64,000 nt of DNA, taken from positions 35,030,001-35,094,000 of the forward strand of contig CM126223.1 of the NCBI GenBank assembly GCA_052327205.1, in the 5' to 3' direction. A program made the position numbers and the translations under genes. The notes under the pieces were generated by a model. It searched no databases and was not told the origin of the DNA. It was given only the letters and a program-made list of their open reading frames with translations. This DNA comes from Somniosus microcephalus. Taxonomy: Eukaryota. Positions within the stretch are counted from its first letter, which is position 1. Each line of letters opens with the position of its first letter. Below, one piece after another: positions 3,385 through 49,386 of the stretch.

Positions 3385-4985
3385 CTCTAGATCCAGTTCA
3401 GAGATACTGCATCCCATCAACTTCACACCCTTTCCATGATTACAAGATGAGGAAGACCATGCAGCTCTTCCAGTCGTGAATGGTGGTGGACCATTAAACA
3501 ACTAACTGGTGGAGGAGGCTCCATGAATATCCCCATCCTCAATGATGGTGGAGCCGAGCACGTGAGTGCAAAAGACAAGGCTGAAGCGTTTGCAACCATC
3601 TTCAGCCAGAAGTGCCAAGTGGACAATCCATATCGGCCTCCTCCTGAGGTCCCCACCATCACAGAAGCCAGTCTTCAGCCAATTCGATTCACTCCACATG
3701 ATATCAAAAACGGCTAAGTGCACTGGATACAGCAAAGGCTATGGGCCCCGATAACATCCCAGCTGTCGTGCTGAAGACTTGTGCTCCAGAACTAGCCGCG
3801 CCTCTAGTCAAGCTGTTCCAGTACAGCTACAACACTGGCATCTATCCGACAATGTGAAAAACTGCCCAGGTATGTCCTGTCCATAAAAATCAGGACAAAT
3901 CCAACCCGGCCAATTACCACCCCATCAGTCTACTCTCAATCATCAGCAAAGTGATGGAAGGTGTCATCGACAGTGCTATCAAGCGACACTTACGCACCAA
4001 TAACCTGCTCATTGATGCCCAGTTTGGGTTCCGCCAAGACCACTCGGCTCCCAACCTCATTACAGCCTTGGTCCAAACATGGACAAAAGAGCTAAATTCC
4101 AGAGGTGAGGTGAGAGTGACTGCCCTTGACATCAAGACAGCATTTGACCGAGTGTGGCATGAAGGAGCCCTAGTAAAACTGAAGTCAATGGGAATCGGGG
4201 GGGAAAACTCTCCACTGGCTGGAGTCATACCTAGCACAATGGAAGATGGTTGGAGGTCAATCATCACAGCCCCAGGACATCACTGCAGGAGTTCCTCAGG
4301 ACAGTGTCCTAGGCCCAACCATCTTCAGCTGCTTCATCAATGACCTTCCCTCCAACATAAGGTCAGAAATGGGGATGTTCACTGATGACTGCACAGTGTT
4401 CAGTGCTATTCACAACTCCTCAGAAAATGAAGCAGTCCATGCCCGCATGCAACAAGACCTGGACTTGTGATGGAATACTCTCCACGTGCTTGGATGAATG
4501 CAGCTCCAACAACACTCAAGAAGCTCGACACCATCCGGGACAAAGCAGCCTGCTTGATTGGCACCCCATCCACCACCTTAAACAATCACTCCCTCCACCA
4601 TCAGCATACCGTGGCTGCAGTGTGTACCATCTACAAGATGCACTGCAGCAACTCACCAAGGCTTCTTCGGCAGCACCTCCCAAACCCGCGATCTCATCCA
4701 CCTAGAAGGACAAGGGCAGCAGACGCATGGGAACACCACCACCTCCAAGTTCCCCTCCAAGTCACACACCATCCTGACTTGGAAATATATCACCGATCCT
4801 TCATCATCGCTGGGTCAAAATCATGGAACTCCCTCCCTAACAGCACTGTGGGAGTATCTTCACCACACGGACTGCAGTGGTTCAAGAAAGCGGCTCACCA
4901 CCACCTTCTCAAGGGCAATTAGTGATGGGCAATAAATGCTGGCCTTACCAGCGACGCCCACATCCCATGAAAAATTAAAAAAAAC
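3385..4985 (+). mobile_element. 5'-truncated, internally deleted non-LTR retrotransposon (CR1/L2 superfamily) RT fragment
   Basis: Frameshifted motifs NYHPISLLS, QFGFR, LDIKTAFDRVWH, GVPQDSVLGP and FTDD. QQDLD jumps straight to VMEYSP at ~4466 (deletion). The 3' tail has aataaa plus an A-rich end. Confidence 0.88.
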
Positions 4986-28342: not shown

Positions 28343-28416
28343 CTGGGAGAACGACCACAAATGAGGAGCTGGAAGACATGCTGGAGAGTGGAAATCCCGC
28401 TATCTTCACATCTGGG
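28343..28416 (+). CDS. STX1A: Syntaxin-1A coding exon (equivalent to human exon 7, 74 nt): (T)[24 protein letters not shown]
   Basis: Acceptor ttattccag| and donor |gtgagt, phase 1 to 0. The linker peptide carries the syntaxin LE motif; GNPAIF.SG favours STX1A over STX1B or STX2. Confidence 0.95.
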
Positions 28417-31269: not shown

Positions 31270-31407
31270 ATCATAATGGACTCGAACATTACGAAGCAGG
31301 CACTGAATGAGATTGAGACACGACACCATGAGATCATCAAGCTGGAGAACTGTATCCGTGAGCTGCACGATATGTTCATGGACATGGCAATGCTGGTGGA
31401 AAGCCAG
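31270..31407 (+). CDS. STX1A: Syntaxin-1A exon (equivalent to human exon 8, 138 nt): [46 protein letters not shown]
   Basis: Acceptor ttttcccccatag| and donor |gtaaga, phase 0/0. Encodes the N-terminal half of the Qa-SNARE motif, ending on the zero-layer Gln. Confidence 0.97.
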
Positions 31408-34400
31408 GTAAGAGAAGGAATGAACAGAGTGAATCTGTACCACAAACACTAGCTGTGAACTAAATAGAGAACAGGCCCAACTTGGTCAGTAATAGCGGAT
31501 TGAATTAAAAACCTTTATGTTTCCATGATGATGTTGATTTTAGCGGCCACAAAATCCTGATCAGACGATTCCCGTTAGGGGTGTGTGTGAACAAAATCTC
31601 ACTTCACTTTACACTGTGCTTGTGAAGGAATTGCTCAATGACGAGTATTCTACATGTCGATGTTAAAGGGTAATCTTAAAGTCAGGGTGTGCTAATGTGT
31701 AACCCACTGACTGTGTCCATCCCAAACTGACCTTAGTATGAAGCTTCATGTTCTTAGTTTTTAGACTTCTTCCCCGAATCTTCCTTCCAGCTTTCAATGC
31801 TTATCACTTTTCCCCTCCCAAGCCAGCGGTGCCGAGTCCACTCGCACTGCTTTTACCGACACCCAGCGGAGATTAACTAACTTAACACAGACTGGGGACG
31901 GAACTTTAGACCTTCTTGACCTGTATGACTCAGTGACACACCAGGAGGGCCATTAACCTCACTGCTCCATGTGAGACACTGGCCTCTTAGTGCCAGGTTT
32001 CAGGTGGGTCCTACCCAGGAAACCACAGTTCCACAAACCCGAGCAGAGAAGTGAATTGGTAACGCTGTCATGCCCCCTAAACCTGCTTCCTCCACAAGTG
32101 GTGCTGTAACCTCCCTGCCCATTAAAATAAGCACAGCTGAAAGACATTCAATGTCCTCCTACTAAATATGAGCGATGCCACTGGAGATTCACTACTTATT
32201 AATGATAACTTAGGCCTGAGCACAGTGACATCTTCCCCCTCTCCGCCTCTGGGAGGCTTTGTGCTTCTATTTGTGAAAATCCCCAAATATGTTGACATTC
32301 ATTGAGAGGGACCTGGGAGCAAGCTATTCACTTTGGGATGGGGGAATATCTGTCCCATTCAGCACCCGCTTTCAATTGATAAGGAGTAAGACTGGTAGAG
32401 TCAGCAGATTTCAAGACTGTCCAGAGCTCCTGGTGGGGAGCGGATTGCATGATGCTCCGACACAGTAACATTAGACCCTGTTCCTGATGGTGATAAATCT
32501 ACATTTTCAGCTCCCAGCATGGGACACATCACCAGCAGGTGTATAGGAACAGGGGCAGGCCATTCAGCCGCTTGAGCCTGTTCCGCAAAATGGCACCTCC
32601 GACAGTTCCCCGCTCCCTCGGTACTGCACTGGAGTGTCGGCGTATATATGCATTCAAGTCTCTGGAGTGGGGCTTGAACCTATGACCTGACTCGGAGCCA
32701 AGTGTGCCATCACTGAACCAAGGGCAGGCTAGCTGCTTCACATACAGTCTTCCTCTCTTCCTCCTCCCCTGCCACTCTCGCATATGCCACCATCCCCCAT
32801 GTCCCAGTTACTCTTACTGATCACCCCATCTGACCGCGCACAAAGATCTCCCATTCCAAGCACTCCCCCTCTCCCCCCCCCCACCCCTCAACACACTGGG
32901 CAAGAGCTGAAAGCAGGGTTTCTTCTGTTTGGGCTGAAGAGACTGTGGATTATGGAAAACTAAAACAAACTGGATTAAAGAGCGAGTAATAGAATCATAA
33001 CAGAGCTCACTGTAGCACTGATTCACAGTGTCACTGGGAGGCTCTGCCTGTGAGCCTGTTCTTCCTACGCTGGTAACAGCCTATGTTTTCTCCTGCTGCT
33101 AATACCCTGGACTGGATGGTGGAGTCCTGCAGGTAATGGCATCTCTGTGTTTGTAGCATGCAGTGACTGTGAAGTTTGCACGATGGCATGTACTACAAAC
33201 TACTTGCATGATCTCGGGTACTTTTAATGTAGAAACTTATCACCAACCCTTCCAAGAGAGCAGACTTGTTGCACTGCAGGATTGTTCACTTGGTTTCAGC
33301 CACCCCGCCCCCTCCCCCGGCCTGGTAAATACCGGCAGCAGAGCTGCTGGGTAAAGCTGCAGCCCTGTTTGAGCCAACCACACCCCCATGGTGGGTGCCA
33401 GCACAGTGCCAGGCCCAGGCTCCGCCGGCAATCTCAATGCAGCTACTTATTCTCAAGCTGCGAATGGGTAAGATCCCTCTAGTTGCTGCATGAGTAATAA
33501 ATAACCAACACTAGAAAGGGCAGATTTTCCTGCTAATTTCCACCACTCCACCCCCCCACTGCTCCGCGCGCCAACACTGGGCAGACGCAGCACACGCGAA
33601 GCGCTGAGATTTCCTGACCCGCGGCAATGCCTAGTGCTGAGGGAAGGGGCAGATCACTCGGGCCTGTAGCTGCGTGTTGGGAACATCTGGCTGCAGACAG
33701 AGGCCAGTAACCAGAAGGTCCCAGTTAGACATAAAAATCCTGGGGTGACGTGGGTTCAAATCTGTTACCTCCCATCTTTGGTCCTTCAGTCAGTGAGGGT
33801 TTGGGACAGCTGGGAGAAAAATAAAAAGCGGGATACCAGGAACACTTCCCTCCCACCTCACGGGATAGTCAAGCCGGCACCAACTGGTGACCCAGCAAAA
33901 CAGGCCTTTGCTCCTTTTCCCTGAACTTTGCATCTGGGGAAATGGACTTTCCTTTGGGGACGAGCCAGAAAAAATCTACAGATACATATGGTGTCGTGTC
34001 CCGAGGAATTTTCATCCCAGTTTAAAAGTTCTGAACAGCAGTGCTAGAGTCTGGAAACATTCTTATTAAATAAATGAAATCATTAGCTGTTAAGATTCAA
34101 AACTAAATCCATACTTTTAGTGATCCAGCAACTCTCCACATGGAAGTGATCTGATGAGTGAGTTACGGAGAGAGTGAATGACTCACTGTGCCGTGGCGGG
34201 ATGCTGCTTTTGCGCTGTGTTTCACCCCACATTGAGTTCTTGTTCAGCTCAGCCATTAGTGGGACACACTAGGCAGAAGGATGAGCTCCGTACAACCGGG
34301 CAGGCGTTACTGCGGGACTGTAATGTGGAGCCCCCTGGAGGCTTCACCTGGGCCCCCAGCCAGGGAGTGCTGTAAGGTGTGGGAGGGTGAGCAGGTTGAA

Positions 34401-34477: not shown

Positions 34478-34588
34478 GGTGATGTGGTCAATAGTATCGA
34501 GCGGAATGTCGTCAATGCAGCAGATTATGTCGGGCAAGCGAAGGAAAACACCAAAAAAGCAGCTAATTTTCAGGGTACCAGCAGACGG
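34478..34588 (+). CDS. STX1A: Alternative exon 9a (111 nt), syntaxin-2-like SNARE C-half: GDVVNSIERNVVNAADYVGQAKENTKKAANFQGTSRR
   Basis: Strong acceptor ttttccttctgtttcag| and consensus donor |gtaagt. Same length and phase as 9b, 16/37 residues identical to it, SNARE layer residues kept. Confidence 0.88.
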
Positions 34589-34612
34589 GTAAGTGGCCGG
34601 AGAGAACGGCAC

Positions 34613-34618
34613 CCTAAT
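34613..34618 (+). promoter_or_regulatory. Putative branch point (cctaAt, A34617) for exon 9b
   Basis: Best yTnAy match in the 77-nt intron, followed by a pyrimidine-rich tract up to AG 34664-34665. Confidence 0.55.
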
Positions 34619-34665
34619 CAGATCTGTTATTTTCATGTGTCTTTGCTCTTTTCCTCACTGCCCAG

Positions 34666-34776
34666 GGAGAGATGATAGACAGGATCGAATACAACGTTGA
34701 GCACTCAGTTGACTACGTAGAGAGGGCAGTGTCCGACACGAAAAAGGCGGTTAAGTACCAGAGTAAAGCGCGACGG
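34666..34776 (+). CDS. STX1A: Canonical exon 9b (111 nt): [37 protein letters not shown]
   Basis: Acceptor cactgcccag| and donor |gtgagt; essentially the vertebrate syntaxin-1 sequence. Confidence 0.97.
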
Positions 34777-34908
34777 GTGAGTAGTGCGAGTGTCTCCACC
34801 CCAGCATGTGGCGTGGGCGACCCCATTTGTGAATTGTGCTTCCCCAATTCCATCACAAGCGAACACGGGAAAAAATGTTTCTCGAACCTTGCGTTCACGA
34901 TTGTCCCG

Positions 34909-35570
34909 CGGACTGTATTAGTCACTAGTCATCAGGCAGACTGTATTGGTCACTAGTCATCCCATGGACTGTATTAGTCACTAGTCATCCCACGGACTGC
35001 ATTAATCACTAGCCATCCCATGGACTGTATTAGTCACTCGTCATCAGGCGGACTGTATTAGTCACTAGTCATCCCGCGGACTATTAGTCACTCGTCATCC
35101 CGCGGACTGTATTAGTCACTCGTCATCCCGCGGACTGTATTAGTCGCTCGTCATCCCGCGGACTGTATTAGTCGCTAGTCATGCCGTGGACTGTATTAGT
35201 CACTCGTCATCCCGCGGACTGTATTAGTTGCTCGTCATCCCGCGGACTGTATTAGTCGCTCGTCATCCCGCAGACTGTATTAGTCGCTAGTCATGCCGCG
35301 GACTGTATTAGTCACTCGTCATCCCGCGGACTGTATTAGTCACTCGTCATCCCACGGACTGTATTAGTCGCTAGTCATGCCGCGGACTGTATTAGTCACT
35401 AGTCTTCAGGCGGACTATTAGTCACTAGTCATCCCGCGGACTGTATTGGCCACCAGTCATCCCGCGGACTGTATTGGCCACTAGTCATCCCGCGGACTGT
35501 ATTGGCCACTAGTCATCCCGCGGACTGTATTGGCCACTAGTCATCCTGCGGACTGTATTGGCCACTAGTC
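34909..35570. repeat. CpG-rich minisatellite, 28-bp unit ggactgtattagtcactcgtcatcccgc
   Basis: About 23 tandem copies with variant blocks. Confidence 0.95.
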
Positions 35571-42348: not shown

Positions 42349-42426
42349 AAAATGATCTTTATAGGAATTTGCATTGCAGTAGTACTGTTGGTTATCATCA
42401 TTGTTCTGGCTGTGTCTCTCAGTTAA
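42349..42426 (+). CDS. STX1A: Alternative last coding exon 10a, transmembrane anchor KMIFIGICIAVVLLVIIIVLAVSLS*
   Basis: Strong acceptor tttcttcccttcccacag|, phase 0. Lys plus ~22 hydrophobic residues then TAA makes a tail anchor. Resembles the recalled STX2 tail KLMFIIICVIVLLVILGIILATTLS. Confidence 0.85.
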   Translation, partial: KMIFIGICIAVVLLVIIIVLAVSLS

Positions 42427-42929
42427 TGCTCCAAAACACCATGATCCCGCAGAATCATCCTGATTGAGACTAAAGCTGGGCTTTTGTTCCGTCATCACCA
42501 TACAGCACTCATGTGGAAAGGAGAGACAGCAACCCATCATTACTGGGCATTTCCGTTTCATTTTGACAAACACCTATCATTTTCCAGGAGGTGCTGTTCA
42601 CAGCCAGCAAGACCATTACTCAGGTTTCAGTTCTATCCTCCTGTTGTGGACCTTGCTTCTTTTGGCATCACTGTAAGCTGAAGAACAACATCAGGATTCA
42701 AGCACAGTCTCTTCTGTATTGTTTATTGCTTACCTTCAATGCCATAATCTCATTTAAGAAACATTATCAGAATGAACCTCGCCTTAACAGACCTTGATCA
42801 CACCAACTTATTGGGTGACTCTGAATCCAGCTGAAGTTCTGCTGTAATAAGGTTTTTATAATAATTTCTAAATCAAATATCTCCCCTTTTCTCTTCTTCC
42901 ATCCTTCCCTCTCTCCTCTCCTGACTCTC

Positions 42930-43130
42930 NNNNNNNNNNNNNNNNNNNNNNNNNNNNNNNNNNNNNNNNNNNNNNNNNNNNNNNNNNNNNNNNNNNNNNN
43001 NNNNNNNNNNNNNNNNNNNNNNNNNNNNNNNNNNNNNNNNNNNNNNNNNNNNNNNNNNNNNNNNNNNNNNNNNNNNNNNNNNNNNNNNNNNNNNNNNNNN
43101 NNNNNNNNNNNNNNNNNNNNNNNNNNNNNN
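42930..43130. other. Assembly gap (~200 N)
   Basis: Run of N flanked by CT-rich repeats. Confidence 0.99.
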
Positions 43131-43765
43131 TCTCGCCCCTTCCTCCCTCCCTCTCGCCCCTTCCTCCCTCCCTCTCGCCCCTTCCTCCCTCCCTCTCGCC
43201 CCTTCCTCCCTCCCTCTCGCCCCTTCCTCCCTCCCTCTCGCCCCTTCCTCCCTCCCTCTCGCCCCTTCCTCCCTCCCTCTCGCCCCTTCCTCCCTCCCTC
43301 TCGCCCCTTCCTCCCTCCCTCTCGCCCCTTCCTCCCTCCCTCTCGCCCCTTCCTCCCTCCCTCTCGCCCCTTCCTCCCTCCCTCTCGCCCCTTCCTCCCT
43401 CCCTCTCGCCCCTTCCTCCCTCCCTCTCGCCCCTCCCTCCCTCCCTCTCGCCCCTCCCTCCCTCCCTCTCGCCCCTCCCTCCCTCCCTCTCGCCCCTCCC
43501 TCCCTCCCTCTCGCCCCTCCCTCCCTCCCTCTCGCCCCTCCCTCCCTCCCTCTCGCCCCTCCCTCCCTCCCTCTCGCCCCTCCCTCCCTCCCTCTCGCCC
43601 CTTCCTCCCTCCCTCTCTCCCCTTCCTCCCTCCCCCTCTCCCCTTCCTCCCTCCCCCTCTCCCCTTCCTCCCTCTCCCCTTCCTCCCTCTCCCCTTCCTC
43701 CCTCTCCCCTTCCTCCCTCTCCCCTTCCTCCCTCTCCCCTTCCTCCCTCCCTCTCTCCCCTTCCT

Positions 43766-43810
<45 letters not shown>

Positions 43811-43858
43811 CCCCCCCTTCCTCTCTCTCTTTCTCCCCTCTCCCCATTCTCTCTCTTT
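43131..43858. repeat. CT-rich 21-bp minisatellite grading into (CT)n
   Basis: Unit tctcgccccttcctccctccc. Confidence 0.95.
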
Positions 43859-49305: not shown

Positions 49306-49386
49306 AAGAAGATTATGATCATTATATGCTGTGTGGTGCTGGGGGTCGTCATCGCCTCCACAGTTGGGGGAGTATTTGGATTTTGA
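49306..49386 (+). CDS. STX1A: Canonical last coding exon 10b: KKIMIIICCVVLGVVIASTVGGVFGF*
   Basis: Acceptor tgcag|, with branch point actaAc (A49256) and a pyrimidine tract upstream. Encodes the syntaxin-1 TMD with the CC pair; IASTVGG favours STX1A. Confidence 0.96.
   Translation, partial: KKIMIIICCVVLGVVIASTVGGVFGF

Follow-up and report, generated by a model that had tools for sequence, protein, structure and literature searches.

The closest described counterpart of the locus reported here is syntaxin-3, whose isoforms STX3A and STX3B have exons 1-8 in common and differ in the SNARE motif's C-terminal half and in the membrane anchor, the alternative exons being joined in a coupled manner as 8/9A/10A and 8/9B/10B (available portions of PMC11476516 and PMC8263458). 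The alternative exons 9 of this gene are 111 nt in length, with the a-type situated upstream of the b-type. The use of the two forms is divided by tissue, b being neuronal/retinal and a being broad/epithelial. A single a-type exon 9 with alternative anchor exons is described for STX2, where it is recorded as event 205 in the available portion of the PMC8373072 supplement. An engineered counterpart also exists in the form of the STX1A-2(Cter) chimera, in which an STX1A backbone carries a C-terminal SNARE half of the STX2 type (PMC10957171, in part). More distant parallels are exons 5a/5b of SNAP-25, which are duplicated alternative exons in a neuronal t-SNARE, though of a different gene (PMC2581893, in part), and exons 8a/8b of Caenorhabditis elegans unc-64, which form a neuronal versus non-neuronal switch that affects the anchor only, unlike that of STX1A (PMC4946901, in part).

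Comparison of the STX1A locus of the shark Somniosus microcephalus to these systems showed that it shares with STX3 the common upstream exons, the alternative SNARE half and anchor, the a-then-b order, the 111-nt size of exon 9 and the coupled junctions. It differs from STX3 in that the main form of STX1A is the b-type, in the intron between the two exon-9 copies (77 nt in STX1A, 160-166 nt in STX3 of the same genome) and in the number of a-type anchor exons (one in STX1A, two in STX3 of the same genome). The a-form resembles STX2, as exon 9a gives a higher score with the STX2 exon than it does with 9b or with the STX3 exons, and exon 10a is similar to the TLS-ending anchor of STX2; STX2 is, however, a gene of its own, and a scan of approximately 50 kb around its exon 9 revealed no b-type exon.

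The reading that we favour, with a rough probability of 0.78, is that STX1A holds a four-exon cassette giving rise to a neuronal form (8-9b-10b) and an STX2-like form (8-9a-10a), that this cassette is likely to be ancestral, and that the a-form is predicted to be less clamped and probably non-synaptic. The four exons lie within one locus, both splice paths occur in contigs of relatives, 9a and 10a are conserved among jawed fishes, and a- and b-type exons are distributed among the paralogues. A literature search among journals outside subscription found no published study of a second exon 9 or 10 in STX1A. As events of this kind are known from STX3 and automatic RefSeq/UniProt models already contain the isoform, the surprise is limited. 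Such models hold 9a, or 9a with 10a, under the name of syntaxin-1A (XP_041054338.1, Latimeria isoform X1 [P0014] and Narcine isoform X4 [P0019]), but they are uncurated and many of those from sharks are without 10a.

Organisation of the STX1A locus

The window, that is the whole 64-kb stretch of DNA that was analysed (C22:35030001-35094000 of a 6.4-Gb genome), was found to contain exons 7, 8, 9a, 9b, 10a and 10b in this order on the forward strand, with STX1A exons 1-6 not found within its 64 kb. Exon 7 (28343..28416; 74 nt) was located using tblastn with protein P0003 (24/25 over the block), its boundaries being read directly, and is common to both forms, as is exon 8 (31270..31407), which encodes the SNARE motif's N-terminal half and has the zero-layer Q226 as its last residue. 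Exon 9a (34478..34588; 111 nt, phase 0) was defined from the sequence, splice contigs, a PDB alignment and relatives, and is separated by an intron of 77 nt (34589..34665) from exon 9b (34666..34776; 111 nt), which encodes the canonical neuronal STX1-type C-terminal SNARE half. Terminal exon 10a (42349..42426) encodes an a-type membrane anchor of 25 aa plus stop with one cysteine and is followed by its own 3' UTR, and terminal exon 10b (49306..49386) encodes the canonical STX1 membrane anchor of 26 aa plus stop with a CC pair. Orthologues of 10a were identified in Narcine, Latimeria, Huso, Megalops and Anguilla among the database matches listed.

A second acceptor-like site was noted at position 42506 of the window, within the 3' UTR of 10a. 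It opens a long reading frame similar to the tails found in isoforms X1 and X2 of Stegostoma STX1A (P0007, P0005), and its use would give anchor-less forms with 9a or 9b alike.

The sequence-only reading had assigned the locus to STX1A, and this was borne out by the names of the database proteins identical over exons 7 and 8, which are called syntaxin-1A in five shark species, and by the presence of a separate STX1B-like gene on contig C35. Exon 8 scored 234 against itself, 199 against the C35 gene and 167 against the gene on C19. On C35 the STX1B-like gene lies head-to-head with an STX4-like gene at a distance of approximately 110 kb, and we take STX1B to be adjacent to STX4 in human as well. 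An STX2-like gene was located on C19 and STX3-like genes on C36. The possibility that the locus represents STX3 or STX1B was rejected. The neighbours presumed for STX1A are BUD23, ABHD11 and CLDN3/4. A search with PF12589 for BUD23 gave one weak match on a different contig, which is uninformative, and five single-exon claudins were found on C22 at 3.7-3.9 Mb from the locus, which are only weakly informative.

Scanning of 30-50 kb per locus identified the exon content of the paralogues of the same genome. In STX1B, exon 9 and the anchor are each present once and are of the b-type; in STX2 and in STX4 they are likewise single, but of the a-type. STX3 possesses exon 9 as an a-type followed by a b-type copy, together with two a-type anchors and one b-type anchor. 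The a-type anchors of STX3 (L020:1636 and L020:3009) match two anchor types found among STX2 proteins, and 10a of STX1A resembles the second of them; three terminal exons may have been present in the ancestral gene. The 3' region of STX3 was observed in two inverted copies on C36 at approximately 6.31-6.39 Mb (L019-L023), with identical exon peptides and approximately 93-97% DNA identity, the cause being either segmental duplication in recent times or duplication within the assembly.

Comparison of exons 9a and 9b

Two 111-nt exons in phase 0 with good splice sites and 16/37 identical residues had been proposed for this locus, and their coordinates, frames and sites were confirmed. Both possess open frames, pyrimidine-rich CAG acceptors and a GT donor (GTAAGT for 9a, GTGAGT for 9b). 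At the nucleotide level 62/111 positions are identical, distributed as 24, 26 and 12 of 37 over the three codon positions. The exons span STX1A residues 227-263, as numbered by alignment to PDB chains. The hydrophobic or small residues of Qa-SNARE layers +1 to +8, which follow the zero-layer Q, are present: at positions 230, 233, 237, 240, 244, 247, 251 and 254, exon 9a encodes V, I, V, A, V, A, T and A, just as had been claimed, and exon 9b encodes I, I, V, S, V, A, T and A. A PDB sequence search matched 9a to STX1A at E = 1.2e-4, and in a window scan with nine references the mean score of 9a was 103, with the best unrelated window position scoring 19; by these sequence scores the match is not due to chance. 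Furthermore, 9a scored 113 against the STX2 exon of the same genome and 85 against 9b, in agreement with the earlier description of 9a as being more similar to syntaxin-2 than to 9b.

Exon 9a shares 30-32/37 residues with shark and ray proteins, in keeping with a cartilaginous fish as host. In STX1 rows from bird, mammal, lamprey and hagfish the exon is identical (37/37) to 9b. The rate of evolution is much higher for 9a than for 9b, and drift is seen at the 3' end of 9a in teleosts. Between the window and a contig of run X3, derived from a relative, 16 differences were found across 9a. Ten of these are listed, of which eight are at third codon positions and seven are silent or lie within one changed codon; the codons affected by these ten comprise six silent changes and three that alter a residue (A241T, V244I, E249D). 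Pseudo-exon, processed copy and different paralogue were each considered for 9a and rejected. The proposal that 9a is functional rather than decayed gains support from the spliced X3 contigs, the conservation among jawed fishes and the bias of the differences towards silent changes and third positions.

Splicing of the alternative exons

Splicing was investigated in six of the 22 sequencing runs listed, all compared as assembled contigs and all from other species. No RNA data set listed carried the window's own sequence, which has no bearing on expression. The runs were guessed to be RNA, with X3 flagged as 'probably DNA'; introns of 3 to 15 kb are missing from the contigs, with the breaks precisely at the exon borders, and on this basis the contigs are read as spliced cDNA. 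One X3 contig (2043 nt, depth 8.5) runs from exon 8 through 9a and 10a into the UTR, with the joint 31407>34478, and a second (4981 nt, depth 79) runs from exon 8 through 9b into the first 30 nt of 10b, with the joint 31407>34666. Both junctions anticipated from the sequence were therefore present in contigs of a relative, and the joints of these contigs are GT..AG at the predicted sites. The 8>9a joint was found in one contig only, with 25 nt on its short side, and the depths of 8.5 for the a-path and 79 for the b-path are a poor measure of level. In run X1, from a separate study, the end of 9a directly precedes 42349. A contig of X2 begins at the 10a acceptor and covers approximately 500 nt of exon and UTR, to about 42862, and an unspliced 222-nt contig of X5 extends across the 77-nt intron with 20 differences and 2 gaps. 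Runs X7, without coverage over exons 8/9, and X18, without coverage on 10a, gave no evidence either way.

Four runs listed no joint between 9a and 9b, with the caveat that contigs drop rare forms. A motif scan of the 77-nt intron identified a branch-point-like A at +29 (CTAAT) and at +47 (TTCAT). A donor-to-branch-point distance below 50 nt has been described as the steric criterion for mutually exclusive exons (PMC5740500, in part), and in this short intron the branch point would be too near the 9a donor, with a predicted steric block to the joining of 9a to 9b. The other mechanisms among these criteria are splice-site incompatibility and a frameshift. The donors of 9a and 9b are both GT, and, as the lengths of 9a and 9b are both multiples of three, a frameshift cannot enforce exclusion. 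Strict mutual exclusion of the two exons is considered likely from these sequence features. The sequence-only reading had termed the exons probably mutually exclusive; in X3 each exon is joined on both sides with no 9a>9b joint listed, and in other fishes there are database models with a tandem of 9a and 9b (Acipenser X4, Arapaima X5, gobies, Scyliorhinus and others; some ab initio, some RefSeq).

Use of 10a or 10b would amount to selecting a terminal exon together with a poly(A) site, and this selection would be tied to exon 9 in the manner of STX3. Models combining 9b with 10a exist for the ray-finned fishes Acipenser, Anguilla, Scleropages and Paramormyrops (some ab initio, some RefSeq), indicating that the coupling of exons 9 and 10 is preferential and not absolute. 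Two models, P0052 (Anguilla) and P0137 (Paramormyrops), were observed to contain a hybrid exon with the start of 9a and the end of 9b, this being either a model artefact or the result of an internal splice at the TKKAV stretch common to both exons.

Predicted properties of the a-form

The outward residues D231, R232, Y235, E238, V248 and S249 were found to be replaced by N, S, R, V, K and E in 9a. Exchange of the C-terminal SNARE half of STX1A for that of STX2 has been described to shrink the readily releasable pool and to raise the release rate, with STX2 surface residues loosening the spontaneous-release clamp in mouse neurons, the point substitutions tested being D231N, R232N, Y235R, E238V, V248K and S249E (available portion of PMC10957171). 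Exon 9a matches five of these six substitutions and 9b none, and this count is the highest among a-forms (two in other sharks, two in Latimeria, four in ray-finned fishes). In comparison with the engineered chimera, the natural a-form is of fish origin, has S and not N at position 232, and also alters the linker and anchor. On the a-path K260 is replaced by T, the linker holds three basic residues at 260-265 where the b-path has five, and the anchor has one cysteine instead of two, with C272 lost. K260 and C271/C272 have been tied to palmitoylation and spontaneous release, the same deficits having been noted in STX3A, and loss of K260/C272 lowered spontaneous release (PMC9183232, in part).

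With the inward layers retained, the 9a form would still be able to zipper with SNAP-25/23 and VAMP. By analogy with the mouse chimeras, it would be expected to have lower priming stability, a weaker spontaneous-release clamp and less palmitoylation, and it would be suited to constitutive or endocrine/epithelial exocytosis, with the b-path providing the synaptic form. The surface replacements and the loss of K260/C272 pull spontaneous release in opposite directions, and the net effect is thus uncertain. A non-synaptic or leakier a-form is what this analogy predicts. The safest version of that prediction, which we hold to be somewhat more probable than its opposite, is an STX2/STX3A-like and poorly synchronous t-SNARE for non-synaptic exocytosis. 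Such a protein would be a naturally selected variant of STX1A at the residues controlling vesicle priming and the spontaneous-release clamp, and antibodies, knock-outs and expression data for fish stx1a may mix two functionally different proteins.

Distribution among species

Database rows consisted of the best 120 of 3799 matches and the best 120 of 1309. In the P0003 cluster, six of the eight members were found to carry exon 9a (Carcharodon, two Chiloscyllium, Stegostoma twice and Cetorhinus; five shark species), and these 9a forms end in intron read-through or another exon and not in 10a. Among the matches listed, proteins named STX1A with both 9a and 10a were found in Latimeria, Narcine, Huso/Acipenser, Megalops and Anguilla, and 9a was additionally found in Synaphobranchus, Silurus, Arapaima, Hucho, Pampus, Tetraodon, Menidia, Prochilodus and gobies. 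The open frame, layer residues and length of 9a are retained across sharks, coelacanth and teleosts.

Of 67 tetrapod STX1A rows, picked by name from the best 120 of 3799 matches, none showed an exon 9 or an anchor of the a-type. As these rows are annotated proteins only, with one amphibian and no lungfish STX1A, we infer rather than observe the loss of the a/a pair in tetrapods. Nor was an a-type exon 9 seen in lamprey or hagfish STX1 protein rows, those of lamprey showing 9b with two different anchors.

Evolutionary origin of the cassette

Trees were constructed from exon 9 and 24 residues of exon 10 (61 columns) and from exon 9 alone (37 columns), under LG+G4 in both cases, using a chosen subset of non-identical sequences, with both STX3 a-anchors included in the tree of 26 rows. 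The a-exons of STX1A grouped with STX2, STX3A and STX4 at SH-aLRT/UFBoot values of 91/93 (26 rows) and 96/89 (31 rows). Vertebrate b-forms grouped at 98.7/90 in the 26-row tree; in the 31-row tree they were not cleanly apart from some invertebrate rows. That STX1A and STX3 underwent separate duplications was rejected by AU testing (p = 0.0013, 0.0003), as was an origin of the a-exon inside the STX1 lineage (p = 5e-6, 0.0015); an a-clade without STX4 was not rejected (p = 0.32, 0.096). Both of the former alternatives were also rejected for exon 9 alone (p = 0.004, 1e-5; constrained trees by fast search). The a-side of the exon-9 tree additionally takes in two divergent insect copies, an intronless STX11/19-like exon and two unnamed proteins, so that fast-evolving copies may attract one another. 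Common descent of the a-exons, and likewise of the b-exons, is supported by these short alignments, subject to the caveat of long-branch attraction.

The four-exon cassette would thus likely have been inherited from the common ancestor of vertebrate STX1/2/3. Following the vertebrate genome duplications, STX1A and STX3 would have retained both pairs, STX1B the b/b pair and STX2 (and probably STX4) the a/a pair, with the a/a pair later lost from tetrapod STX1A. The sequence-only reading had envisaged an ancestral two-module switch at STX1A; its ancestral character agrees with the trees, within their caveats, but its extent was too small, the cassette consisting of four exons with 10a and 10b having been missed.

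An older date is possible though doubtful, namely that the cassette predates vertebrates, with an a/b split (at least of the anchors) that is bilaterian and shark exons that are orthologous to the alternatives of arthropods and nematodes. The STX2 and STX3 alternative-exon events have been dated to Bilateria, with Daphnia cited (PMC8373072, in part), insects hold both a-like and b-like anchor exons, and unc-64 possesses alternative anchor exons 8a/8b (PMC4946901, in part); moreover, monophyly of the vertebrate a-exons with the divergent insect copies was not rejected in the exon-9 tree (p = 0.069). However, the order of exon 9 is reversed in arthropods, the three divergent insect copies do not group together in that tree, and in the 61-column tree (31 rows) the insect copy falls outside the a-clade. 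This earlier origin is compatible with the best explanation of the vertebrate data and shifts the date only. The available portion of the PMC8373072 supplement, which covers a human set, holds no entry for STX1A or STX1B, and the main text of PMC5740500 makes no mention of syntaxin or STX.

An independent duplication within STX1A of early jawed vertebrates, with likeness to STX2/STX3A arising from convergent relaxation of the same surface positions, in the way of the separate duplicates of arthropods, appears unlikely. It would accommodate the assorted divergent copies on the a-side of the exon-9 tree, the tandem copies of arthropod STX1 in the opposite order and the lack of an a-type exon 9 in the lamprey and hagfish protein rows examined; it is, however, rejected by the AU test for each of the three data sets, the addition of exon 10 takes the insect copy out of the a-clade, and the a-then-b order, 111-nt size, phase and paired terminal exons are common to STX1A and STX3. 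That 9a is a decaying or noisy relic, spliced at a low level into mostly truncated, anchor-less products, is highly improbable, since its rapid evolution with 3'-end drift in teleosts, the shark RefSeq cluster of five species with 9a forms lacking 10a and the contig depth of 8.5 against 79 (itself a poor measure of level) are set against a frame, layers and length kept across sharks, coelacanth and teleosts, differences biased to third codon positions, and the observation in two studies of 9a joined to an anchor exon that is intact and conserved.

We consider a broader proposal evenly balanced between being correct and incorrect: the plasma-membrane syntaxins of vertebrates would be frozen splice forms of one ancestral gene, with STX1B fixed as the neuronal b/b form, STX2 and STX4 fixed as general a/a forms, and STX3 and fish STX1A still switching. 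As fish STX1A still switches, it would provide a natural version of the 'unclamped' STX1A-STX2 chimera, which tetrapods would have deleted, leaving STX1A as a gene of neurons and endocrine cells only. The cassette in STX1A shows the STX3A/3B switch to be peculiar neither to STX3 nor to retina. It would offer an account of how STX1B and STX2 arose, and it provides a clean case of splice forms partitioned between gene duplicates after the vertebrate genome duplications.

Other alternative C-termini and repeats

Several further variations were observed among the STX1 rows. Mammalian STX1A models (P0092 and similar) possess an alternative sequence straight after exon 8, presumably of the STX1C type, which comes from the intron that holds 9a in fishes; comparison of the peptides found no likeness of this tail to 9a. 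Lamprey STX1A models (P0119, P0121, P0123, P0124) contain a second, short anchor exon and NAGNAG-like variation of one residue. The STX1 of arthropods (mites, insects and crustaceans; P0133, P0134, P0136, P0159, P0169, P0199, P0245, P0248) contains tandem copies of exon 9 and several anchor exons, with the conserved copy placed first in insects, the reverse of the vertebrate order.

Repeated elements were also identified in the window, namely LINE reverse-transcriptase-like fragments at 3947-4847, a highly repeated SINE-like element with deep run coverage at 32530-32740, 24 copies of a 28-bp tandem repeat at 34904-35570 that start 128 nt past the 9b donor, and, at 42930-43856, a stretch of N followed by a 21-bp pyrimidine repeat.
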